Positions 7,884 to 63,510 of a DNA stretch of 64,000 nt are shown one piece after another. Below the pieces are notes generated by a model that did no database searches, was not told the DNA's origin, and saw nothing but the letters and a program-made list of their open reading frames with translations. Source of the DNA: Candidatus Kaiserbacteria bacterium (lineage in GTDB: Bacteria; Patescibacteriota; Minisyncoccia; Phycocordibacterales; UBA2100); NCBI GenBank assembly GCA_028286585.1, contig JAQBRI010000008.1, positions 84,476-148,475 of the forward strand. The letters run 5' to 3'. The translations under genes were made by a program, and so were the position numbers. Numbering within the stretch: the stretch's first letter is position 1; each line of letters starts with the position of its first letter.

Positions 7884-8233
7884 TCTTCGAGAAGTCGGGT
7901 TTGGCATAAATGCCGCCGCCTGTATTCTCTGCTTTCCTAATAACAATATCACATAATATAAGTATGTAAAATTTGATACGTGTATAAGTAAAAAAATGTG
8001 CTTTTGTCATAAATTGTGTAAAATGTATATACACAACCAATATCGAGCCGAAAGGCAAGTGCCTAAACTATCGAGTAATCGATGGCATGGTGCAAAATCG
8101 CGACAAATGTAGAAAACCCGTTATCAGGGCGTTTGTCGCGTTATGCAGGGAAACTTGCATAGGGCCGCAAGGCCTCCTGGTAGCGGGCTTTATGTTGCCC
8201 AGCTATCAGCATTATCAGTAATGCAAAAAAGCT

Positions 8234-9394
8234 ATGAGCAAAATACTTTCATTTCTAAATTTGATCGGCGCTTTTTTAATTTTTTTAGTATATATCGCAA
8301 TAGCACTTACGCTACTTCTTTTTATACCCACATTACTCTTTGGAGGAGGAGTTTGGTTTTATACAGATTATCTTGCGCCTCTCTTAAAATATGTAGATTA
8401 CATAGCAGCCCTACTTTCTATAATCTTTTTGTTTCTTTGCATTTTTCGCAAGTACAGAATATTCGCTGGGTCGGCTCTAGTCTATTGCTCATATGCGATC
8501 GGTGTTGACCTGTGGTTTCAGTCACTCATTAACACCTACATTTCTTTCGGTCCTGTCGGTACTATATTAGGAGTGTTTTTTCTAGGAGTTGGTGTTTTCT
8601 TTACGGGACTTGTTGCACTATTATGGGCTCACTTATTCACCGCATTTTGGTCACTTCTTGGTTCGGGCTTATACATGATTGGAATACGATGGTTTGGTTT
8701 ATATATCGCACAAAATGAGACTGATAGTCAATATGATCCAAATTTGGACGAACCCGATGAGGATGGAATTACAGAGCGAATGATTCAGAAAATGATAAGT
8801 AAAAATGGGAGCAATAAAAATGTAATAGAAGATATTAGCACGGAATATATAGAGCCAAGGCAAGAGATTGTGAAATTCGACGCAGAAGAGTATCTCTCTC
8901 TGCTGAAAATTACAGAAACATTTATTAATAGAGGGAGATCGGACGATCCACCAAGATTTGTTATTTTTATGGGAGGAGTGGGTAGCGGAAAAACGACATC
9001 ACGCAGGGTGAATTTTTCTATCAACTACGTTAATTTTGATTTTGGAGAAATCCATCTCTCGCTAGAAAAAGCATTTGGTGTGAAATTTCCTCGAATTTCG
9101 GAGTATGCCTCTTATGTAAGTGATCTTGTCTTGCGGCAAGCTCTGCAAGAAAGAAAAAAAATCGTCATTGAAATTATAGGTGATAGCTACGCTCTGATTT
9201 CTCCGGTAATTAATGCAATGAAGGGAATCGGATATGACGTCTCTATAGAAGGTATCATAGATGACACTGTTGCAAGTTACGGAAGATATATGTATGCAGT
9301 GGATAAAGATCCTGACTATATCTCGGCAGCCGATACTCAGGAATTAACACTAAGTTTTTTCCATCACTATTTCGGACTGGTACCAGCGCCATGA
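8234..9394 (+). CDS. Membrane-anchored P-loop NTPase (kinase- or zeta-toxin-like C-terminal domain)
   Basis: About five predicted TM helices in the first 160 aa. The soluble C-terminal domain has Walker A 'FMGGVGSGKTTSRR'. Confidence 0.5.
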   Translation: MSKILSFLNLIGAFLIFLVYIAIALTLLLFIPTLLFGGGVWFYTDYLAPLLKYVDYIAALLSIIFLFLCIFRKYRIFAGSALVYCSYAIGVDLWFQSLINTYISFGPVGTILGVFFLGVGVFFTGLVALLWAHLFTAFWSLLGSGLYMIGIRWFGLYIAQNETDSQYDPNLDEPDEDGITERMIQKMISKNGSNKNVIEDISTEYIEPRQEIVKFDAEEYLSLLKITETFINRGRSDDPPRFVIFMGGVGSGKTTSRRVNFSINYVNFDFGEIHLSLEKAFGVKFPRISEYASYVSDLVLRQALQERKKIVIEIIGDSYALISPVINAMKGIGYDVSIEGIIDDTVASYGRYMYAVDKDPDYISAADTQELTLSFFHHYFGLVPAP

Positions 9395-12938: not shown

Positions 12939-12986
12939 GGTGACCTCCTTGATGATCTGGAGAGAACTCTAACATAGTTGTAAAAA

Positions 12987-13014
12987 GGTTCCAACCTCGT
13001 CCCAGGCAGCGAGC
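12987..13014 (+). repeat. Cassette-boundary repeat, copy 1
   Basis: GGTTCCAACCTCGTCCCAGGCAGCGAGC, 20 nt upstream of the ATG at 13034. Confidence 0.6.
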
Positions 13015-13033
13015 AATCTGATATAGTTATGTC

Positions 13034-13432
13034 ATGAATCCCGATCCACGCCTACATCACACAGCAAAGCGTATACAACGAGGAAGCCTAGGGAATGTAA
13101 TCGAAATGTTTGCATTACTTGGTTGTAAAGTGTCGTATCGCCCAGAAGGCAATGGTTGGGCAATGATTGGCCAAGAGGGACTTAATTTTGATATCCAGCT
13201 CATTGAGGTAGATGGTATACCGTTAGAAGGTGAGACTCGAAGAGATTCACAAATCTCCTTTGTTTCTGAAAATCCTACTGATCATATTAATAAAGTCCAT
13301 ATATGGGCTGAAGAAAAAAACCTTACATTTATTCAAAAGTCATGGAACGAACGTGAGCATTACTTTGATTTGCCTGATCTCTTTGTTGACTGGGTTGTAG
13401 AAGTAATGCATATATCGGTTGTTGAAAGCTAA
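13034..13432 (+). CDS. Hypothetical protein (cassette gene)
   Basis: 132-aa ORF bounded by repeat copies 1 and 2. Confidence 0.4.
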   Translation: MNPDPRLHHTAKRIQRGSLGNVIEMFALLGCKVSYRPEGNGWAMIGQEGLNFDIQLIEVDGIPLEGETRRDSQISFVSENPTDHINKVHIWAEEKNLTFIQKSWNEREHYFDLPDLFVDWVVEVMHISVVES

Positions 13433-13433
13433 A

Positions 13434-13461
13434 ATTCTAACATCGTCCCATACAGCCAGCC
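13434..13461 (+). repeat. Cassette-boundary repeat, copy 2
   Basis: ATTCTAACATCGTCCCATACAGCCAGCC, starting 2 nt after the stop at 13432. Confidence 0.6.
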
Positions 13462-13485
13462 AATATTGTTTTTTTAATGTAAACT

Positions 13486-14004
13486 ATGTCGATGACACTT
13501 ATTATTATCCTGTTAATCATCATAGGGTTAGCAGTTGTATTTTCTTTAATTCAAAAGGGCGAGAATGTGGAAGTCGAGCATCCGGAAGTACATTCTATTC
13601 AAGAGCAGAAAGATCCCATGCCCTATGTAAGGAAGCAGTATTTTATGACAAATTCAGAGTTAAATTTTTTTAGAAATCTTGAAAAAATAAACCAAAATAA
13701 ATATTTTATTGTTCCTCAAGTATCGTTATCCGGACTAGTTTCAGTTGCTGATAATGAATTGATGAGAAAAACATATAACAATAAAATCGATAGAAAGTCA
13801 GTAGATTTTGTTCTATTTGATAAAGCTACTTTCCTTCCAAAATTGGTAATCGAATTAGATGATAGATCTCATGATAGATATGATAGAAAAATAAGAGATG
13901 AATGGGTCGATGATGTAATGAAGAAGGTGGGTATAAGGATAGTTCACGTCAAGGCTTCTTATTCCTACAATTTGGTGCCAATCGAAGGTCTTTTAGCTGG
14001 TTAA
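13486..14004 (+). CDS. Membrane-anchored DUF2726-like protein (PD-(D/E)xK nuclease-like fold)
   Basis: N-terminal TM helix, then 'FMTNSELNFFRNLE...FIVPQVSL...VDFVLFDK...LVIELDD', which matches the DUF2726 / restriction-endonuclease-like core. Confidence 0.5.
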   Translation: MSMTLIIILLIIIGLAVVFSLIQKGENVEVEHPEVHSIQEQKDPMPYVRKQYFMTNSELNFFRNLEKINQNKYFIVPQVSLSGLVSVADNELMRKTYNNKIDRKSVDFVLFDKATFLPKLVIELDDRSHDRYDRKIRDEWVDDVMKKVGIRIVHVKASYSYNLVPIEGLLAG

Positions 14005-14016
14005 GTATTTTAAAAT

Positions 14017-14045
14017 AGTTCCAACGTGGTCCCAGACTGTCAGCC
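14017..14045 (+). repeat. Cassette-boundary repeat, copy 3
   Basis: AGTTCCAACGTGGTCCCAGACTGTCAGCC. Confidence 0.6.
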
Positions 14046-14114
14046 CTTGACTTAAGTATTTTTGAATGGTAATTTCTTGAAAGAAGTTTCCACTCCCATA
14101 AGGAGCAATTAAAG

Positions 14115-14459
14115 ATGAAGTTCGTTTTCATAGCACATCCAATGTCGGGAGACATAGAAGGAAATATGCAGAAAGTTGTTGCTATCTGTAGAAGTATTCA
14201 TTCCGAAGAAATTATTCCCGTCTTTCCAAGTGCACTGACAAGGAGATATCTCACGCCAGATCCACGAGACCGCGCACTCGCCCAGACGATGATCGAAGAA
14301 TACTTTCGTCGAAGGATCATCGATGAAGTCTGGCTCTATGGCACTGATTTAACAGATGGCATGAAGAGAGAGGTGCGTTTTGCGGTTACCTACAACATTC
14401 CTGTTGTGGCACAGACACCTCAAATGCAACTTTCCCTCGACACATACTTAAAAGTTTGA
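14115..14459 (+). CDS. DUF4406-like (nucleoside 2-deoxyribosyltransferase-like fold) small protein
   Basis: 'MKFVFIAHPMSGD' N-terminus and 'DEVWLYG', typical of the DUF4406/NDT-like family; 114 aa. Confidence 0.4.
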   Translation: MKFVFIAHPMSGDIEGNMQKVVAICRSIHSEEIIPVFPSALTRRYLTPDPRDRALAQTMIEEYFRRRIIDEVWLYGTDLTDGMKREVRFAVTYNIPVVAQTPQMQLSLDTYLKV

Positions 14460-14526
14460 CATCACCTTCGTTTGTATTAAAAACCCTCCGGTCTACATTG
14501 ACGGCGGGTTTTCATTTATCCAAAAA

Positions 14527-14554
14527 GGTTCCAACATCGTCCCAGATTGCAAGC
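14527..14554 (+). repeat. Cassette-boundary repeat, copy 4
   Basis: GGTTCCAACATCGTCCCAGATTGCAAGC. Confidence 0.6.
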
Positions 14555-14612
14555 TAGACGTGTTATTGCAAACGTGGTATTGTTTTGTTCAGAACACAGG
14601 AGGAGAGAGATT

Positions 14613-15032
14613 ATGTCTCAAAATGTTCGCTCGTACTGCGACGCGATTTTCGCGTCAATTCCGACGACCACGATCGAAGTCAAGACTATCGAAGGCACCA
14701 AACGCTTTGTCTTTGGTTTGGTTCAAAGTCAAACGTTGTGCGGCGACGATCTGGGAACATACAACAACTACCAAATCGTCGAGATACGAAGAAGGGGCGA
14801 GGCATCGACGGCAATACTCTCTCTTCAAATGGACACGCGACAATGTGGGCCGACACAAGTCTACATTCGCGGTGAGGCTGCCAAAGATTGGTTTGCTGCG
14901 TCTTCAAAGTGGTTTCCAATCCTTGAAATAACAGCAGATATGTTCGAGGAAGGTGATACACTGATCGTTCCTGTTGCGATCGAGTTTCTCGCACGACTGG
15001 TTCTTTATCGCATCCGAAAACAGGCCTCATAA
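14613..15032 (+). CDS. Hypothetical protein (cassette gene)
   Basis: 'AGGAGGAGAGAGATT' RBS precedes the ATG at 14613. The track ORF starts upstream at 14547 without an RBS. Confidence 0.45.
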   Translation: MSQNVRSYCDAIFASIPTTTIEVKTIEGTKRFVFGLVQSQTLCGDDLGTYNNYQIVEIRRRGEASTAILSLQMDTRQCGPTQVYIRGEAAKDWFAASSKWFPILEITADMFEEGDTLIVPVAIEFLARLVLYRIRKQAS

Positions 15033-15053
15033 ACTTGAGTACACGAAAATCAA

Positions 15054-15092
15054 AAAGGCCGCCTCACCAGTATTGGTTTGGGCGGCTTTTCA
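15054..15092 (+). terminator. Rho-independent terminator after the 14613-15032 gene
   Basis: GGCCGCC...GGCGGC stem followed by TTTTC. Confidence 0.4.
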
Positions 15093-15102
15093 TATGGCAA
15101 AA

Positions 15103-15129
15103 ATTCCAACATCGTCCCAGACTGCCAGC
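15103..15129 (+). repeat. Cassette-boundary repeat, copy 5
   Basis: ATTCCAACATCGTCCCAGACTGCCAGC, the closest match to the consensus. Confidence 0.6.
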
Positions 15130-17834: not shown

Positions 17835-18218
17835 TCATTCCGATATATTCAGGCCCACAATTCTTGAAGGATCCAGCGTACTGCCGCCTTGCGGAAACAG
17901 TGTGACCGCCTCTCCCGAGATCGGTGAGAGTAAGAAGAGGCGTCCTTCTTCGGCATCCGAAACATTGTAGATAAGCAGGCTTGCGGAGTAGTCGAGGCGG
18001 TCACTGACATTCCATTCACCACCGTCCTCCATCTTGGCGACCCATTTGAGTGTGATATTGAGATCCCCGCAGTTGTCGGATGGAAAACCGGGGACTGGTT
18101 TACCTTCGGTTACCTCGACGGCGGCGATTTCTCCACGGTAGAGATAGTCTTCACCCTCATTTCGAACTTCGAGCTGACCACCTTTATAACGCTGAAGGTC
18201 TTGGGTAGTTAACTTCAT
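17835..18218 (-). CDS. Hypothetical protein
   Basis: 127-aa ORF. Confidence 0.4.
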   Translation of the reverse strand: MKLTTQDLQRYKGGQLEVRNEGEDYLYRGEIAAVEVTEGKPVPGFPSDNCGDLNITLKWVAKMEDGGEWNVSDRLDYSASLLIYNVSDAEEGRLFLLSPISGEAVTLFPQGGSTLDPSRIVGLNISE

Positions 18219-18330
18219 GACGGAATCCTTCTTTCGCCCAGAACAGGCTGGACAGAATGTAGCATATGTTGCACAAAAATTCCACTACTATTCCATGCTG
18301 CCATTGGCTACAGTTTGGTATACTTTGTAT

Positions 18331-18966
18331 ATGAAGTTACTACTTACATCTGCGGGAATAACAAATCAGTCAATTGCCGATTCGTTGATTGATCTTGTTG
18401 GTAAAAAAGTCGAAGATATAAAAATTGGTTTTATTCCAACAGCAGCAAATATTGAAAAGGGAAATAAGGATTGGTTCATTCGGCAATTTATAGATCTCTA
18501 TGCGTATGGATTTACTTGGATCGATATTGTTGATATTTCGATTCCAGAAATTGATTGGAAGAATCGCTTTGCCGAGACGGACGTAATTATGGTAAGCGGA
18601 GGTAATACTTTTTACTTACTCGAGCAAATTCGTAAAGCCGGATTTGCCGAATGGCTTAAAACGATACAGGATACAAAAGTATATGTGGGAATTAGTGCAG
18701 GAAGTATTGTTGCCACCCCTTCAATTGCGATAGCCGCTGTAGATAATGGTGATATCAATTATTCGAATCTAACAGATCTGAATGGTTTTGGATTAGTAGA
18801 TTTTGAAGTTTCGCCTCACACTCCTGAACAGGTAAGTAACGAAGGGAATCTGAATTATATAAAATCTTCGGGAGCAAAGCTATATGGAATAGACAATCAG
18901 AGTGCTATTAGGGTTGTGGATGGGGAAGTAGGCGCTGTCTCCGAAGGTGTCTGGATTGAGTACTAA
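18331..18966 (+). CDS. Peptidase E-like (S51 family, class I glutamine amidotransferase-like fold)
   Basis: 'MKLLLTSAGI' N-terminus and 'SGGNTFYLL...GISAGSIV' catalytic Ser context. Confidence 0.65.
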   Translation: MKLLLTSAGITNQSIADSLIDLVGKKVEDIKIGFIPTAANIEKGNKDWFIRQFIDLYAYGFTWIDIVDISIPEIDWKNRFAETDVIMVSGGNTFYLLEQIRKAGFAEWLKTIQDTKVYVGISAGSIVATPSIAIAAVDNGDINYSNLTDLNGFGLVDFEVSPHTPEQVSNEGNLNYIKSSGAKLYGIDNQSAIRVVDGEVGAVSEGVWIEY

Positions 18967-18989
18967 AAAAGTGTAGCATTATCATAATT

Positions 18990-19013
18990 AAAAAAGCCGC
19001 TCGGAGGAGCGGC
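18990..19013 (-). terminator. Hairpin terminator (GCCGCTC-GGAG-GAGCGGC) with a T-run on the minus strand
   Basis: It lies downstream of the small minus-strand ORF 19056-19208. Confidence 0.4.
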
Positions 19014-19055
19014 AGAGAAATATTCCTCCGAGCTACTTCGAGCGGTACAATTGCA

Positions 19056-19208
19056 TCAGGCTTCCCGTCTCATTCTAATGAGAAAAGGAAGCGCGATGAG
19101 GATCAATACGATGATCGACAGAACAATGCTAGCGACTTGCGATCCGTGATGTGCCGTGCCTGTGGCGCTCACAATTGACCAGCCAAAAAAACCTGCCATT
19201 CCCATGAA
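19056..19208 (-). CDS. Small hydrophobic protein (~50 aa)
   Basis: 'MFMGMAGFFGWSIVSA...VLSIIVLILIALPF' forms two TM helices. It has its own terminator. Confidence 0.3.
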   Translation of the reverse strand, partial: FMGMAGFFGWSIVSATGTAHHGSQVASIVLSIIVLILIALPFLIRMRREA

Positions 19209-19228
19209 CATACTCCTTCTTGCTGCGG

Positions 19229-19612
19229 TTAGATATGGGGACCGTCTGGATCTTGGTATTTGATCCAAACCAGAGGCTGAGCAGGATCGAGTTTGACGCC
19301 GTTCGGATCGTCGGCCAACACATCAATGATGTCAAACTTGAGCTGACGAACCACGCTCTTGGTCAGTTTGGCCTTGCGATCAGGATAGCCAATGGTCTCG
19401 ACTTCGAATGAGAAAAGCGCCGACAATTGTGCACCGGGCGGATACATGAGTGGCAAAAAGTCGATGTCTTCGATTCCGAGGGTTGTGGCCTCGGTGCTGG
19501 CTGCATTAGCAACAAGTTTGCGGATAGCGAGGCCGGCCCTTTTGTGATCGAATTTGAGCATAAACATACTGGGCGCCAGATTGACGTCAATGTTCATAAA
19601 AACCTTAAGCAT
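19229..19612 (-). CDS. Hypothetical protein in the GC-rich block
   Basis: A good RBS (AAGGGAGATTT) precedes the ATG; 127 aa. Confidence 0.45.
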   Translation of the reverse strand: MLKVFMNIDVNLAPSMFMLKFDHKRAGLAIRKLVANAASTEATTLGIEDIDFLPLMYPPGAQLSALFSFEVETIGYPDRKAKLTKSVVRQLKFDIIDVLADDPNGVKLDPAQPLVWIKYQDPDGPHI

Positions 19613-19763
19613 CTAAATCTCCCTTGTTTGAACACGTTGAACTGCGTGCGTTATAATACCAATTTACCTATAAGTCAAGTCTTATGATTTCGATCCCCAC
19701 TAACTTTAATAGTCAGACGCGGGCACTGGCAGTACGTTTTCTAACGCCATAACACTTTTATAT

Positions 19764-19792
19764 TTGACATATGTATAATTAATATGTAATAT
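19764..19792 (+). promoter_or_regulatory. Sigma-70-type promoter TTGACA-N17-TAATAT
   Basis: Exact -35 element with 17-nt spacer, about 45 nt upstream of the ATG at 19838. Confidence 0.45.
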
Positions 19793-19837
19793 AAATTCGG
19801 AGCTAATTGAGGCTTGGAACCAAGAAGGGATTCTAAA

Positions 19838-20323
19838 ATGAGCGACACAAGGACCCGATTGAAAATTCGCAAAATTGCTATTCCAGTCATCGTCGACATT
19901 GGTCGCGACTGGAAACAACTTGTTCGTGCTATGGCACCTGAAACTGGCTCAGAAGTGCCGCAGGAACTCATCTCAAAAGATATTGTTCCTGCACGAAAAG
20001 TCCTACTCGTCAATTTTGGCGAAGATACTTTTAACAATATCGGAGAAGATCATTATCAATCCTGGCATGTCGCCTGGGGTCGCAAAAACGGTCTGCGTCC
20101 AGCAACAGACCGCGAAGTCATGTCGACTGGTTCTGCCGATCTGGAAAGTGATCTCGGCTCGGAACCGGTCGCAATCGTCTTGTTTCAAGTCGAGACGTGG
20201 GGCAATATGCCTTTTGGGCGAACCTTCCAGTTCGCAGGCGGTAGACGCCGTCTCCATTCAGAACTTTTGCTTCTTGGGATGTACCCCAGCTCTTGGTGGT
20301 TTCCGTATGTTCGTGAAGCCTAG
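19838..20323 (+). CDS. Hypothetical protein in the GC-rich block
   Basis: 161 aa from 'MSDTRTRLKI'. Other frames in this GC-rich region are also open. Confidence 0.35.
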   Translation: MSDTRTRLKIRKIAIPVIVDIGRDWKQLVRAMAPETGSEVPQELISKDIVPARKVLLVNFGEDTFNNIGEDHYQSWHVAWGRKNGLRPATDREVMSTGSADLESDLGSEPVAIVLFQVETWGNMPFGRTFQFAGGRRRLHSELLLLGMYPSSWWFPYVREA

Positions 20324-20450
20324 CATCACACCGCCACTTCAAAAGCCACCCTCCGGGGTTCGCTCTGGAGTGGTGGCTTTTTTGTATAATGCACCCTTCA
20401 TTTAAATAAGAATTCGCAAGGATCTTAGCTCTGTACCCGTGTCGCAAGTA

Positions 20451-20479
20451 TTGACAAATAATACATATAATCCTATAAT
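20451..20479 (+). promoter_or_regulatory. Consensus sigma-70 promoter TTGACA-N17-TATAAT
   Basis: Perfect -35 and -10 hexamers with a 17-nt spacer. It reads into the GC-rich unit. Confidence 0.55.
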
Positions 20480-20625
20480 ACTAGCGGGAAATGGGAACTT
20501 CGCATCATGGTAAGCATAGGCATACTTGAATAAAGTTTCTACGGTTACTCCAACAGGAAGGTGAAAGCCAAACTTGTTAGCTAGAAGTCACAACATAGTG
20601 TTGTGATTCTCGCGGAGCCGCCCCC

Positions 20626-20877
20626 ATGACCCAGCATGCAATCGTGGTAGTCCACGCCGCTTCCAACACGGTCATAGTTGGAACCCACTCGTTTACCGAT
20701 GGATTCAAAGTCTCTCGCAGGCAATGGATCATTAGGACAGACGAAGACGCTGTTGCGTATTGTTCATGGCTTACAAACCATGGATTTGCACATCAAAGCG
20801 ACGATTTCCTCGATCGTTGGGTTGAGCGAGGAAGCATTCCGACAATTGGTCTCCCTCGATCAGCGTTTGCGACGTAG
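20626..20877 (+). CDS. Possible small ORF (83 aa) inside the promoter-to-terminator unit. Coding status is uncertain.
   Basis: The region is GC-rich (~50%) with several overlapping frames, and there is no clear RBS. Confidence 0.25.
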   Translation: MTQHAIVVVHAASNTVIVGTHSFTDGFKVSRRQWIIRTDEDAVAYCSWLTNHGFAHQSDDFLDRWVERGSIPTIGLPRSAFAT

Positions 20878-20888
20878 GGGGATCGAAC

Positions 20889-20926
20889 AAAGCCGAACAC
20901 CCCTCTCGGGTAAGTAGGCTTTTTTC
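20889..20926 (+). terminator. Terminator-like repeat element, copy 1 (AAAGCCGAACACCCCTCTCGGGTAAGTAGGCTTTTTT)
   Basis: Outer stem AAAGCC/GGCTTT enclosing inner stem ACCC/GGGT, followed by a T-run. Confidence 0.5.
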
Positions 20927-20961
20927 ATTTTAAATATTATTTATACTGATATACTTACTAG

Positions 20962-21342
20962 ATGAAACTCGATGCAATTGGGGTTGTGAGCAAAGATATT
21001 AAAAAGTCGGTAGCGTTTTATAAGCTGCTTGGTTTTGAATTTGGCGAAGTACCAGACGATGCAATGCATATTGAGGCCAAGCGCCAAAATGATTCTGTAC
21101 GATTCATGATTGATAATTATGAAATGATTAAGGAACATACGGGTATCGATACAGAGCCGTCAAACATGTCTTCGTTTGCAATCTTGTGCGACAATCCAGC
21201 AGATGTTGATTCTGCGGTACAAAAAATAAAAGACGCAGGCTACACAATTGCCAAGGAGCCATGGGATGCGATGTGGGGTCAGCGATATGCCGTTGTGATT
21301 GACCCGGACGGCTACGGAGTCGACTTGTTTGCCACACTCTAA
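20962..21342 (+). CDS. VOC / glyoxalase-bleomycin-resistance family protein
   Basis: The 126-aa protein has a 'MKLDAIGVVSKDIKKSVAFYKLLGF' beta-alpha-beta-beta-beta module. Confidence 0.65.
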   Translation: MKLDAIGVVSKDIKKSVAFYKLLGFEFGEVPDDAMHIEAKRQNDSVRFMIDNYEMIKEHTGIDTEPSNMSSFAILCDNPADVDSAVQKIKDAGYTIAKEPWDAMWGQRYAVVIDPDGYGVDLFATL

Positions 21343-21408
21343 AATATAAAAATACCCAGGCCTTTAAACTCGTTTTACAAACGACACAGGGCACTGTAGA
21401 GTTTAAAA

Positions 21409-22269
21409 ATGAACAGTCTACTAAAGAAATGCCACTCTTTAATAGCCTCTATTGCTGCAATAAAATGGCAGTCACTCGATTTAAAGTTTCTCATAGAGGA
21501 ACTTTTTTTCTTTACTCTTAAAGAATTGCGTGCCGTTTTATTTCCCGGGCTATTTCTTTTGCTGCTACTTATATCAAATTATGTTTTGGTAGGTAACATT
21601 TATAGATATGATTTTCTCTTTGTGGGTGCAGTGCTAATACAAGTTGTGCTACTTGTTTTAAAACTTGAAACCGTAGACGAGGCAAAAACTATATTTTTAT
21701 TTCACATAGTCGGCCTGTGTCTCGAAATCTATAAGACAAATCCAGCAATAGGTTCATGGTCGTATCCAGAACCAGGCTATCTTAAAATTGCCGGCGTGCC
21801 CTTGTATAGCGGATTTATGTACGCGGCAGTTGGTAGTTATATTGCTCAAGCATGGAAGTCTCTACATCTAAGACTTTCTGTTCATCCATCATATTCGATA
21901 AGTATTATTTTATGTATTTTGATATATCTTAATTTTTTTACTAATCATTTTATATATGACTATAGAATGTTTCTTTTTGCAGCCATATTTGTACTCTATT
22001 ATCGAACGAATATTTATTTCACTCCGCGCAAGAGGGAATACAGAATGCCTTTAATTGTCGGCTTCTTACTCATTGCTTTTTTTGTTTGGATCGCAGAAAA
22101 TATTGCTACTTTTTATGGAGCGTGGAAGTATCCAAGCCAAATTCATGCGTGGGAAGTCGTGGGCTTTCAAAAGATTACTTCTTGGTTTTTGCTGGTAATA
22201 ATATGCTTTATCATCGTTGCATATCTCAAACATTTTAAACAAAGTCGTGCTATAAAAGTAAAAGAATGA
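21409..22269 (+). CDS. Polytopic integral membrane protein (DUF817-like)
   Basis: About 8 TM helices; 286 aa. Confidence 0.5.
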   Translation: MNSLLKKCHSLIASIAAIKWQSLDLKFLIEELFFFTLKELRAVLFPGLFLLLLLISNYVLVGNIYRYDFLFVGAVLIQVVLLVLKLETVDEAKTIFLFHIVGLCLEIYKTNPAIGSWSYPEPGYLKIAGVPLYSGFMYAAVGSYIAQAWKSLHLRLSVHPSYSISIILCILIYLNFFTNHFIYDYRMFLFAAIFVLYYRTNIYFTPRKREYRMPLIVGFLLIAFFVWIAENIATFYGAWKYPSQIHAWEVVGFQKITSWFLLVIICFIIVAYLKHFKQSRAIKVKE

Positions 22270-22281
22270 CAAATCGCTGTT

Positions 22282-22313
22282 CAATAGACAGGAGGTAAAA
22301 TAGTGGTAAGCTG
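22282..22313 (+). repeat. Conserved leader CAATAGACAGGAGGTAAAATAGTGGTAAGCTG, copy A
   Basis: Identical 32-mer also present at 22767-22798. Confidence 0.5.
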
Positions 22314-22345
22314 TTTTTAGCTGCTGATAACGTGGGAAGATAGAA

Positions 22346-22684
22346 ATGCAAATCGATCCAAAAGCTGCACTAATGGCAATCGCCATATGCATACTAATGT
22401 ATATTCTGTCATCTTCTTTAGGCTTCAGGGAGGCAAGGCAAGAACTTAAAATCTTGAGAGTGTTATCAAAAAAAGGGCGGGCAAAGAGTCATGAGATTAT
22501 AAACATCGACCGTAAGATTGGATCTATTGCAATTTATGCTCGTCTCACAAGAATGGAGCAATACGGATTTATAGCTGGAGAAGGTCCATCCAAACCCACG
22601 CAATCTCGCGATCCTACAAAAATATGGTGGATCACAATGCGCGGAGCTACGAGACTAAAATATCTGGAAAAGAATTATAGATAG
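22346..22684 (+). CDS. Membrane-anchored winged-helix (PadR/MarR-like) small protein, paralog A
   Basis: TM helix, then 'QELKILRVLSKKG...W.ITM.G..RLKYLE'. Paralogous to 22831-23172. Confidence 0.5.
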   Translation: MQIDPKAALMAIAICILMYILSSSLGFREARQELKILRVLSKKGRAKSHEIINIDRKIGSIAIYARLTRMEQYGFIAGEGPSKPTQSRDPTKIWWITMRGATRLKYLEKNYR

Positions 22685-22729
22685 CATTCGCTGATACTTA
22701 TCATATATGTGATCGTCAAGAGTTCATTT

Positions 22730-22766
22730 AAAGCCGAACACCCGCTCTGGGTAAGTAGGCTTTTTT
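22730..22766 (+). terminator. Terminator-like repeat element, copy 2
   Basis: AAAGCCGAACACCCGCTCTGGGTAAGTAGGCTTTTTT. Confidence 0.5.
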
Positions 22767-22798
22767 CAATAGACAGGAGGTAAAATAGTGGTAAGCTG
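22767..22798 (+). repeat. Conserved leader, copy B
   Basis: Identical to the 32-mer at 22282. Confidence 0.5.
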
Positions 22799-22830
22799 CC
22801 CTCAGTCGCCAATAACTCAGGGAGATAGAA

Positions 22831-23172
22831 ATGTCATTTTATCTTGGAATGGGATTCGTGATGATTGTAATAGTCGTCGCGATACTTGTTTGGCTTTCCT
22901 TGTTACATTCTCGGGAGCAAAAGCAGGAACTCAAGATTCTGGCATTGTTGTCAGACCTTGGTCGGCTTAACGGCCTCGAAATGTTTGAGTATGACAACTC
23001 CATTAGTCCTTCGAATCTCTACAAACGTTTATTAAGATTAGAGCAGGACGGAGTTATTTGCGGAGAGAATTTTGTCCACTTACCGGGAACTGCTCTGCCT
23101 GTTAAAAGGAAATTCTGGATTACTATGAAGGGAAACTCCAGGCTTAAGTATCTGGAACTGAACTTTAAGTGA
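22831..23172 (+). CDS. Membrane-anchored winged-helix small protein, paralog B
   Basis: TM helix, then 'QELKILALLSDLG...FWITMKGNSRLKYLE'. Confidence 0.5.
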   Translation: MSFYLGMGFVMIVIVVAILVWLSLLHSREQKQELKILALLSDLGRLNGLEMFEYDNSISPSNLYKRLLRLEQDGVICGENFVHLPGTALPVKRKFWITMKGNSRLKYLELNFK

Positions 23173-23213
23173 CATACGCAGTATACTTATCGCGAATAGG
23201 CGATAAGCTGATT

Positions 23214-23255
23214 GAAAGCCGAACACCCCTCTCGGGTAAGTAGGCTTTTTCTTTT
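23214..23255 (+). terminator. Terminator-like repeat element, copy 3
   Basis: AAAGCCGAACACCCCTCTCGGGTAAGTAGGCTTTTTC. Confidence 0.5.
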
Positions 23256-23310
23256 TATAATTTAAACATGGCCTACCTGTATAAAATTTAATTCATGCTA
23301 CAATTTTGGC

Positions 23311-23643
23311 ATGACTTTTTTTACAATACTTCCGTTATGGGTATGGATCACAATTTCGGCATTATTCTTTGCTGCTGGTGAATTTCTTTCAAAAAAGTTT
23401 GCGCTAAATCCTGGTTGGGTCTTGTTTACACTTTTTATTCTTGTCGACATCGTTAGTGCAGCGTCGTGGCTCCCGGCAATTTACGAAAAGAATCAGCTTT
23501 CGACCACTGGCGTTATCTGGTCAATTGTTTCTCTTGTTGCAACGATAGGTATCGGGGTTTTTGCGTTCAATGAAAGGCTGACACTTGTACAATCTATAGG
23601 AGTTGCCCTGGGAGGTGTTTCAATTATCCTTTTGAGTTTATAA
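23311..23643 (+). CDS. Small 4-TM membrane protein (SMR/EamA-like)
   Basis: 110 aa with four hydrophobic helices. Confidence 0.45.
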   Translation: MTFFTILPLWVWITISALFFAAGEFLSKKFALNPGWVLFTLFILVDIVSAASWLPAIYEKNQLSTTGVIWSIVSLVATIGIGVFAFNERLTLVQSIGVALGGVSIILLSL

Positions 23644-55722: not shown

Positions 55723-55735
55723 GTCTATACAATAA

Positions 55736-55764
55736 AGTTCTAACATTGTCCCACACTCCCAGCC
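55736..55764 (+). repeat. Cassette-boundary repeat, copy 7 (island 2)
   Basis: AGTTCTAACATTGTCCCACACTCCCAGCC. Confidence 0.55.
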
Positions 55765-61296: not shown

Positions 61297-61325
61297 AAAG
61301 AAAAAGACCCGGCTGTATGCCGGGT
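61297..61325 (-). terminator. Hairpin GACCCGGC-TGTAT-GCCGGGTC with TTTTTCTTT on the minus strand. It is the terminator of the GcrA-like gene and the left copy of a 30-bp direct repeat.
   Basis: 29/31 identical to 63480-63510. Confidence 0.55.
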
Positions 61326-61338
61326 CGGAAGTTATTAT

Positions 61339-63435: not shown

Positions 63436-63477
63436 ACTCGTCTGTAATGTATACAGACGAGTTTTTCTGTTTTTTTA
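63436..63477 (+). terminator. Rho-independent terminator after purK
   Basis: Stem ACTCGTCTGTA/TACAGACGAGT (11 bp) followed by TTTTTCTGTTTTTTT. Confidence 0.65.
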
Positions 63478-63479
63478 AA

Positions 63480-63510
63480 GAAAAAGACCCGGGCGTATGC
63501 CGGGTCTCTA
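63480..63510. repeat. Right copy of the 30-bp hairpin repeat AAAGAAAAAGACCCGGGCGTATGCCGGGTC
   Basis: Near-identical to 61297-61325. No minus-strand gene lies to its right, so it is not obviously a functional terminator here. Confidence 0.5.

Follow-up and report, generated by a model that had tools for sequence, protein, structure and literature searches.

Tandem winged-helix genes with conserved flanks

The DNA analysed in this study is a stretch of 64,000 nt (hereafter the window) from a metagenome-assembled genome (MAG) of Candidatus Kaiserbacteria (contig JAQBRI010000008.1). It contains two neighbouring genes on the + strand, named here paralog A and paralog B, each of which is predicted to encode a small protein with one transmembrane (TM) helix and a winged helix-turn-helix (wHTH) domain. 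Both genes are preceded by the same 34-nt block (blocks A and B) and followed by a near-identical hairpin with a T-run (T2 and T3), and another copy of the hairpin (T1) is located further upstream. The positions of these features and of the neighbouring genes are listed in Table 1.

The two proteins were found by BLASTP to be 42% identical (E 5e-24), and all shared parts of the two units lie head-to-tail in one common 485-bp register, which confirms the tandem duplication of block, gene and hairpin that had been proposed in an initial annotation of this DNA. The accompanying proposal that the duplication was recent was not borne out, as only the flanks are identical. The coding sequences show 51% nucleotide identity, with 44% at third codon positions, and a Nei-Gojobori calculation on the codon alignment, the check that had been suggested for the two genes, gave pS 0.70 (dS about 2, saturated) and dN 0.63. 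In the stretch encoding the conserved C-terminal peptide, the synonymous positions also differ between A and B. Judged by these divergences, the duplication is old.

A blastn-short comparison of the two cassettes detected nothing in common except the 34-nt block and the hairpin. When the cassettes were aligned, the rest of the 5' untranslated region (UTR) was identical at 20 of 32 positions, including an identical GATAGAAATG at the ribosome-binding site (RBS), and a conserved block of about 18 nt was found directly after the stop codons, beyond which the remaining 3' UTR is about 30% identical. Conservation is therefore a mosaic on the scale of 10-35 nt, in which promoter block, RBS, post-stop block and hairpin stems are split by diverged stretches, and which looks like the footprints of functional elements. 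By our own arithmetic, at an identity of 0.44 per neutral site the chance that all 34 positions of the block agree is about 1e-12. Since the block is unchanged at 34 of 34 positions while the coding sequences are saturated, neutral decay is excluded, and purifying selection, short-patch gene conversion, or both would have preserved it.

The common register, the identical block and the near-identical hairpin are what would be seen if the duplication were recent and the flanks were identical simply because the copies are young. Such an origin is very improbable, because a young copy would match throughout, whereas here the synonymous sites, the coding sequences and the proteins have diverged to the values given above, and so have the stretches of the 5' and 3' UTRs between the blocks. 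It could be saved only if a distant donor had supplied one of the coding sequences, with the replacement ending precisely at the flanks. The insertion of the glyoxalase and DUF817 genes into an ancestral junction of hairpin and block was also considered; the shared TTCA on which it is based is equally explained by microhomology at the duplication junction, and it is left as a weak lead.

As the source is a MAG, the arrangement might in principle have resulted from collapsed or mis-joined repeats. An artefact of this kind is unlikely, because the repeats (34-37 nt) are far shorter than a read, and the genes between them, at 51% nucleotide identity, cannot be duplicated reads. The independent, k-mer-based Logan assembly of SRR13312974 was inspected, and its contigs were found to end exactly one unique base outside each shared stretch: one ends in T1 (L011), another starts in T1 and ends in block A (L009), and a third starts in T3 (L010). 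We take the Logan graph to be built with k=31, and true repeats of 34-36 nt would break such a graph in this way. The junctions ORF83/T1, T1/glyoxalase, DUF817/block A and T3/SMR-like gene were confirmed by these contigs; all testable unique junctions are thus present in that assembly, with branching exactly at the repeat edges. Neither paralog was on record in an exact look-up in assemblies, which the short inter-repeat contigs (about 480 nt) may explain. Taken together, an assembly origin of the repeats is hardly credible.

Table 1. Features of the paralog locus in the window. Source: metagenome-assembled Candidatus Kaiserbacteria genome, contig of 149 kb, locus tags JWO50_595-600. SD, Shine-Dalgarno sequence.
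Feature	Position	Strand	Remarks
ORF83 (JWO50_595), orphan, 83 aa	20626-20877	+	T1 downstream; not homologous to the paralogs
T1	20889-20925	+	stems AAAGCC/GGCTTT and ACCC/GGGT, internal loop GAAC/AAGTA, then TTTTTT
Glyoxalase-family gene	20962-21342	+	between T1 and block A
DUF817 membrane protein gene	21409-22269	+	between T1 and block A
Block A	22280-22313	+	TAGACA 22285-22290, 16-nt spacer, TGgTAAGCT 22304-22312
Paralog A (JWO50_598), 112 aa	22346-22684	+	SD GGGAAG 22334-22339
Post-stop conserved block after A	22685-22702	+	CATTCGCTG-ATACTTATC; from the alignment
T2	22730-22766	+	apical loop GCTCT (not CTCTC), then TTTTTT; abuts block B
Block B	22765-22798	+	identical to block A; TAGACA 22770-22775, TGgTAAGCT 22789-22797
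Paralog B (JWO50_599), 113 aa	22831-23172	+	SD GGGAG 22820-22824
Post-stop conserved block after B	23173-23191	+	CATACGCAGTATACTTATC; from the alignment
T3	23215-23250	+	same hairpin as T1, then TTTTT
SMR/EamA-like 4-TM protein gene, 110 aa	23311-23643	+	directly 3' of T3

The 34-nt block as a putative promoter

The initial annotation had described an identical 32-nt leader at 22282 and 22767; it holds, and the full identical block, TTCAATAGACAGGAGGTAAAATAGTGGTAAGCTG, is 34 nt long and occurs only twice in the window. Its most plausible role is that of a promoter of the genes themselves. TAGACA matches the -35 consensus TTGACA at 5 of 6 positions and is separated by 16 nt from the -10 hexamer TAAGCT, which matches TATAAT at 3 of 6, and the edges of the block lie 5 nt 5' of the -35 and 1 nt 3' of the -10 element. 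Transcription is predicted to start at a conserved A (22319 and 22804, respectively), which would give a 5' UTR of about 27 nt carrying the Shine-Dalgarno (SD) sequence GGGA(A)G. Neither inverted nor direct repeats were found inside the block, so that there is no obvious palindromic operator, and a scan of the viral collection for the leader pattern returned zero matches.

The -10 region of the block conforms to a pattern that is common in the window. In a crude survey of 71 gene starts, each with 80 nt upstream, TGnTAnnnT (TGNTANNNT) occurred 27 times against 5.1 expected, a 5-fold enrichment. Its occurrences peak 6-7 nt before the ATG, where 11 of them are located, as in leaderless genes, and a second group lies 27-40 nt 5' of SD-led genes; paralogs A and B, with TGGTAAGCT located 33 nt 5' of both ATGs, belong to the latter group. 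The promoters of this genome are dominated by TGnTAnnnT. SD-like sequences were seen at only 14 of 72 crude gene starts, and the motif at 6-7 nt from an ATG without an SD implies that leaderless mRNAs are widespread. Genes of this kind, which lack an SD and have TGnTAnnnT ending 6-7 nt before the ATG, start for example at 1535, 16462, 20962, 23311, 25317, 36537 and 58210. In a syntenic locus of another genome (L001, see below), a promoter with TCGACA, a 16-nt spacer and TATTAT preceded by TG is predicted 30 nt before the ATG of the related gene. Homology between this promoter and the block was suggested by a MAFFT alignment, and is not claimed after a weak shuffle test.

The block had initially been interpreted as a leader in which a strong SD followed by GTG gives a 5-codon upstream open reading frame (uORF) in copy A and a read-through reading frame in copy B. 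These sequence features are real: a perfect 7-nt SD (AGGAGGT) stands 6 nt before a GTG in both copies, the GTG overlapping the TG of the TGgTAAGCT motif. From the GTG at 22303 runs a 5-codon uORF (22303-22320, MVSCF-stop), and from that at 22788 an out-of-frame reading frame of 60 aa (22788-22970). A functional uORF leader, on the other hand, is probably the wrong interpretation. Only the first four codons (MVSC) are common to the two frames, which is not the pattern of a leader-peptide attenuator, and the 5' regions of both copies fold no better than shuffled sequences (z +0.48 to -0.63), by which a riboswitch or an attenuator in these regions was ruled out. With transcription starting at the conserved A, the GTG would be absent from the genes' own mRNAs.

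For the block to serve as an mRNA leader, in which the uORF or ribosome loading at AGGAGGT controls translation of the wHTH gene, it would have to act on transcripts reading through from the DUF817 gene (copy A) or through T2 (copy B). Between the DUF817 gene and block A there is a 10-nt gap without a terminator, so that upstream transcripts would run into paralog A and the block is probably present on some of them; the well-spaced perfect SD and the four conserved codons also fit such a role. We nevertheless regard it as rather unlikely, since a frame of 5 codons in A and an overlapping out-of-frame one of 60 in B leave no common peptide or stop, since no attenuator or SD-sequestering switch is evident from the shuffle-level folds, and since only a minority of the genes in this genome use an SD. 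It would also leave 11 conserved nt 5' of the SD unexplained, whereas a promoter covers the whole block. Next to the promoter role, a secondary translational effect is conceivable, as read-through transcripts from the DUF817 gene would carry the SD and the GTG.

The hairpin element

The hairpin consists of AAAGCCGAACACCC-N5-GGGTAAGTAGGCTTT followed by a T-run, and occurs exactly three times in the 64 kb, each time on the + strand, where none would be expected by chance. The three near-identical terminator-like elements reported initially are thus real, with the third beginning at 23215 instead of 23214. A covariance model of the element, trained on its three copies, scored them at 63-66 bits, and the next best match, an ordinary terminator, at 15.5 bits. 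The stem is composed of 6 bp and 4 bp, interrupted by a 4x5 internal loop. All 34 non-loop positions are identical across the copies; T1 equals T3 over 36 nt, loop included, and T2 departs from them in the apical loop only. The predicted folding energies are -15.2 kcal/mol for T1 (z -3.7), -12.5 for T2 and -13.4 for T3, with z ranging from -2.4 to -3.7, and the distances from the preceding co-directional stop codons (those of ORF83, paralog A and paralog B) are 11, 45 and 42 nt, respectively. All three copies therefore have a stable hairpin with 5-6 T right after the stem, 3' of a co-directional stop, and in the plain reading the element looks like an intrinsic terminator, in agreement with its first description.

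Other copies of the hairpin or other classes of element were sought in several ways. A tblastn search of the window with A and B found no degenerate third paralog near T1. Rfam gave nothing at the elements, either in a gathering-threshold search of the window or in a permissive search of 20300-23350. Elsewhere in the window, at 8060-8175 (+), Rfam matched a LOOT RNA (RF03000) with 84 bits against a gathering score of 46, directly 5' of the open reading frames 8143-8508 and 8234-9394. Exact-pattern scans for the hairpin returned zero matches in the genome, metagenome and viral collections, outside of which the source MAG apparently lies, and the hairpin was not found in the related loci described below. 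A K-turn in the internal loop was ruled out by the unpaired bases on both strands and the lack of tandem G.A/A.G pairs.

There is some possibility, though not a large one, that the hairpin is more than a terminator, namely a sequence-specific RNA or DNA element, such as a loop-E/bulged-G module or a palindromic operator, that marks ORF83, the glyoxalase-DUF817-A unit and B for shared control of termination, mRNA stability or the downstream promoter. The stems and both strands of the 4x5 loop are invariant in the three copies, only the apical loop varies, no compensatory changes have occurred in spite of the saturated neutral divergence of the adjacent genes, and each copy lies 0-45 nt 5' of the promoter of the next unit. 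The loop GAAC/AAGUA may follow the loop-E/sarcin-ricin pattern: in all three near-identical copies, AGUA stands opposite GAA, with the polarity relative to the outer helix that such modules have, which we treat as a lead only. Against this, three copies of which two are identical offer no covariation, and recent copying would give the same picture; the searches of Rfam, of the other collections and of the related loci speak in the same direction. A role of this kind would be compatible with the explanation that we favour.

It is considerably less probable that hairpin and block are boundaries of a mobile or recombining cassette, resembling integron attC sites, repetitive extragenic palindromic (REP) sequences, miniature inverted-repeat transposable elements (MITE) or att sites. 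In favour of it, the hairpin, an imperfect palindrome, sits at edges like those of a cassette, T1 and T3 form perfect 36-nt direct repeats around 2.3 kb with T1 beside a non-homologous gene, and elsewhere in the window (12982-15129) small genes are arrayed with a 33-nt repeat between them. Sites of the attC type are about 57-141 nt long, and the elements here, at 34-37 nt, are shorter; GCCGAAC agrees with RYYYAAC at only 6 of 7 positions and lacks a GTTRRRY partner. No integrase, transposase or RAYT-like domain was detected in the neighbouring open reading frames scanned. Dispersed repeats, whether REP or bacterial interspersed mosaic elements (BIME), MITE or uptake sequences, would be spread over the genome in many copies, whereas the 64-kb window has only three, which lie together within 2.4 kb. 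The adjacency of the wHTH and SMR-like genes is ancestral, being common to L001.

The repeat of the small-gene array belongs to a family of about 33 nt (consensus AAAAAGTTCCAACATCGTCCCAGACTGCCAGC), whose copies at 12982-13014, 13428-13460, 14012-14044, 14522-14554, 15097-15129 and 55731-55763 share 70-85% identity with the reference copy. Each intergenic gap of the small-gene row (132 aa, DUF2726, DUF7768, 161 aa) contains one of them, shortly 5' of -10 elements, and they may act as a common upstream site of regulation or mark the boundaries of cassettes. Two further hairpins, 93% identical and 2.2 kb apart, are located at 61297-61326 and 63477-63506 with an A-run in front (AAAGAAAAAGACCCGGCTGTATGCCGGGTC); they are probably minus-strand terminators, in which case near-identical terminators recur elsewhere in this genome.

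The gene upstream of T1 has features of its own. At 20451 there is a perfect TTGACA-17-TATAAT promoter, behind which come about 146 nt of leader and then ORF83, the G+C content is raised (47%) in the stretch 20451-20888, and the 445-nt transcript folds better than shuffled sequences (z -3.75); a structured 5' UTR or a non-coding RNA is possible. Scans of the paralogs and their neighbours with PHROGs and PADLOC gave zero matches, by which no link to phages or defence is indicated.

The proteins, their relatives and the proposed function

In both paralogs, a hydrophobic segment of 19 aa was found at positions 7-25 (Kyte-Doolittle mean 2.26 and 2.95) and is followed by positive charges, which points to an N-out/C-in topology with about 6 residues outside the cell. 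An AF2 model built on a 12-sequence alignment (pLDDT 91.4) shows a helix of residues 5-43 that leads from the membrane straight into helix 1, followed by the helix-turn-helix (HTH), a two-stranded wing and a C-terminal helix, i.e. a wHTH with a C-terminal helix as in solved PadR structures. Foldseek against the PDB retrieved MarR and PadR families (E about 1e-4), and the tightest superpositions were with PadR-s2 proteins (root-mean-square deviation 2.9-3.2 A over 88-94 residues; 2.9 for 6abt and 3.2 for 5h20). In profile searches of the PDB, PadR entries headed the matches; a profile of the four TM-bearing proteins alone matched PadR-like 3l7w with E 6.7e-5, and the value was 1.4e-8 when soluble relatives were added. 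The Pfam PF03551 scores of 17.0 and 16.4 bits (E 0.006 and 0.009) are below the cut-off of 27, and scores with the NCBIfam PadR-type models are far below their cut-offs; we therefore call the proteins PadR-like and not members of the PadR family. According to these models and comparisons, each protein consists of a TM helix at the N-terminus and, fused to it, a winged helix of the PadR/MarR-like type; a TM helix with a winged helix had also been read from the sequence at the outset.

Relatives are few. A HMMER search of 1.84 billion representatives found A, B and only ten weak matches, among which the TM-wHTH architecture is present only in P0003 and P0010; P0019, encoded beside P0010, is the fifth protein. 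P0010 has a precomputed match to PF03551. Three word-index protein searches yielded nothing beyond these five family members, and protein-guided locus searches of the genome and metagenome collections gave no confirmed relatives. With five such proteins in the databases searched, the early remark that membrane-tethered wHTH regulators are unusual is a fair one, and no description of a TM-fused PadR-like protein was found in the literature.

P0003 is located at the syntenic position, in single copy, in five loci (L001-L005). In L001 the synteny continues downstream, where the SMR-like neighbour is 74% identical and an M10 peptidase 58%, and the adjacency of the wHTH and SMR-like genes is thus common to L001 and the window. 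With A and B, P0003 shares no more than 29-32% identity, and it has a different promoter sequence and a different terminator. Since it is syntenic and yet so diverged, the gene was already present at this locus in the ancestor and evolves fast, and the duplication is lineage-specific. The accessory small genes 5' of the wHTH gene are wholly different in the two loci, and this variable region abuts a stretch that is conserved between them: S51 peptidase, orphans, glyoxalase and DUF817 in the window (18000-22280), and HTH_31, DUF8412, OmdA, DUF6199, DUF5946, YCII and DUF1761 in L001 (1-4900). In a distant locus (L006, 5001-5802), P0010 is followed after 17 nt by P0019 in a bicistronic pair (121 and 139 aa). 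These two proteins are 25% identical, their genes carry an identical RBS, GGAGGTTTACATG, and they look like an independent tandem pair; the pair is found in an unrelated metagenomic contig, where it adjoins gatC/gatA and ligA. Tandem pairs with identical expression signals are therefore seen in two of the three lineages.

Among known regulators, the paralogs resemble the small PadR proteins of subfamily 2 (LmrR of Lactococcus lactis, SMU.1704/3l7w, Listeria 6abt and Bacteroides 5h20), which have about 100 residues arranged as helix, HTH, beta-wing and C-terminal helix, and with which they share the wing motif (K/R)xYxIT.xG. LmrR controls a multidrug transporter, to which the conserved SMR-like neighbour is a parallel. 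They differ from the small PadR proteins in the N-terminal TM helix that runs straight into helix 1, in their sub-cut-off Pfam and NCBIfam scores and in their occurrence as diverged tandem pairs. ToxR, CadC and TcpP likewise carry a DNA-binding winged helix that one TM helix anchors to the membrane on its cytoplasmic side (PMC6320335, PMC10629549). Those proteins have an N-terminal OmpR-type domain, then the TM segment and a periplasmic sensor, whereas in the paralogs the TM segment comes first, about 6 residues lie outside, a sensor domain is lacking and the fold is PadR/MarR-like. Dyads of HAAS and PadR-like wHTH proteins in envelope stress are another membrane-coupled wHTH system, proposed as an alternative to two-component signalling (PMC11237479). 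In the dyads, the link to the membrane is provided by a separate partner (HAAS with PspC, LiaF or Toastrack), whereas the paralogs carry the TM helix on the wHTH protein itself and have no gene for HAAS, PspC or Toastrack beside them.

Considering these results together, we think it probable on balance that the locus arose by an ancient tandem duplication of a whole transcription unit, the flanks of which have been selected or converted so that the expression of the two copies is matched. The duplicated unit would consist of a promoter, a short SD-led 5' UTR, a membrane-anchored PadR-like gene and an intrinsic terminator, a copy of which would also end the unrelated upstream unit with ORF83. 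A and B would be separate units, identically driven and identically terminated, their expression signals being held by purifying selection, short-patch gene conversion, or both; in L006 the same end may be reached by one operon with identical RBSs. The simplest case in which matched amounts of two proteins are needed would be that of heterodimer partners. PadR/MarR-type proteins are obligate dimers, and matched expression would fit dimer partners for this reason. The paralogs may bind an operator inside their own identical promoters and so regulate themselves. PadR-type repressors often autoregulate and control transporters, which, together with its conservation, makes the neighbouring SMR-like gene a plausible candidate target.

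Non-coding signals that stay identical while other sites diverge are known from concerted evolution and phylogenetic footprints, and short, close, same-strand repeats provide, as in concerted evolution, a setting where short-patch conversion is possible. In textbook concerted evolution it is the coding part that is homogenised, whereas here only non-coding blocks of about 35 nt are identical and the coding sequences are saturated.

Several observations weigh against the proposed explanation. Selection and gene conversion are inseparable from one genome. T1 follows an unrelated gene and is not accounted for by the cassette duplication; its place beside a non-homologous gene needs one extra copying event of about 36 nt. 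The promoter and the terminator are predictions from sequence. The hexamer TAAGCT is weak and the promoter was not called by a simple sigma-70 consensus scan, TGNTANNNT is met by chance about once per kb, and the perfect AGGAGGT and GTG within the promoter spacer are an odd coincidence. The block resembles the L001 promoter only weakly (for block A, 71 of 2000 shuffles scored as well, and block B was not significant). A simple terminator scan called none of the three hairpins on the + strand, as it looks for an uninterrupted G+C-rich stem and the 4x5 internal loop breaks it. Moreover, L001 has a single copy, and a heterodimer is thus not obligatory for the family.

A bolder extension, which we consider unlikely, is that A and B form a membrane-anchored PadR-like heterodimer without an extracellular sensor, which would sense an intramembrane cue or a lipophilic compound and control a local regulon. 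Such a dimer would bind identical operators in its own two promoters, with the invariant asymmetric hairpins as further recognition sites, either as DNA palindromes or as loop-E RNA, and the regulon would span the glyoxalase, DUF817 and SMR-like genes for detoxification or transport. If this were true, the locus would exemplify an as yet undescribed design of one-component signalling, which recurs as tandem pairs in unrelated lineages.

The DNA elements of the locus are, in our reading, an ordinary promoter and terminator, and in their architecture the proteins represent an uncommon variant of known regulators. Such everyday parts remove the suggestion of an unusual uORF-based regulatory cassette. 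The locus offers a clean natural case of base-identical expression signals across a duplication whose coding sequences are saturated, which points to selection for matched expression. The TGnTAnnnT promoters and largely leaderless mRNAs of this Kaiserbacteria genome would be useful for the annotation of such genomes. A TM helix directly fused to a PadR-like winged helix is a very rare architecture that occurs in tandem pairs in two of the three lineages, and it may represent a minimal membrane-tethered transcription factor in the reduced genomes of the candidate phyla radiation (CPR), where regulators are few and poorly understood.

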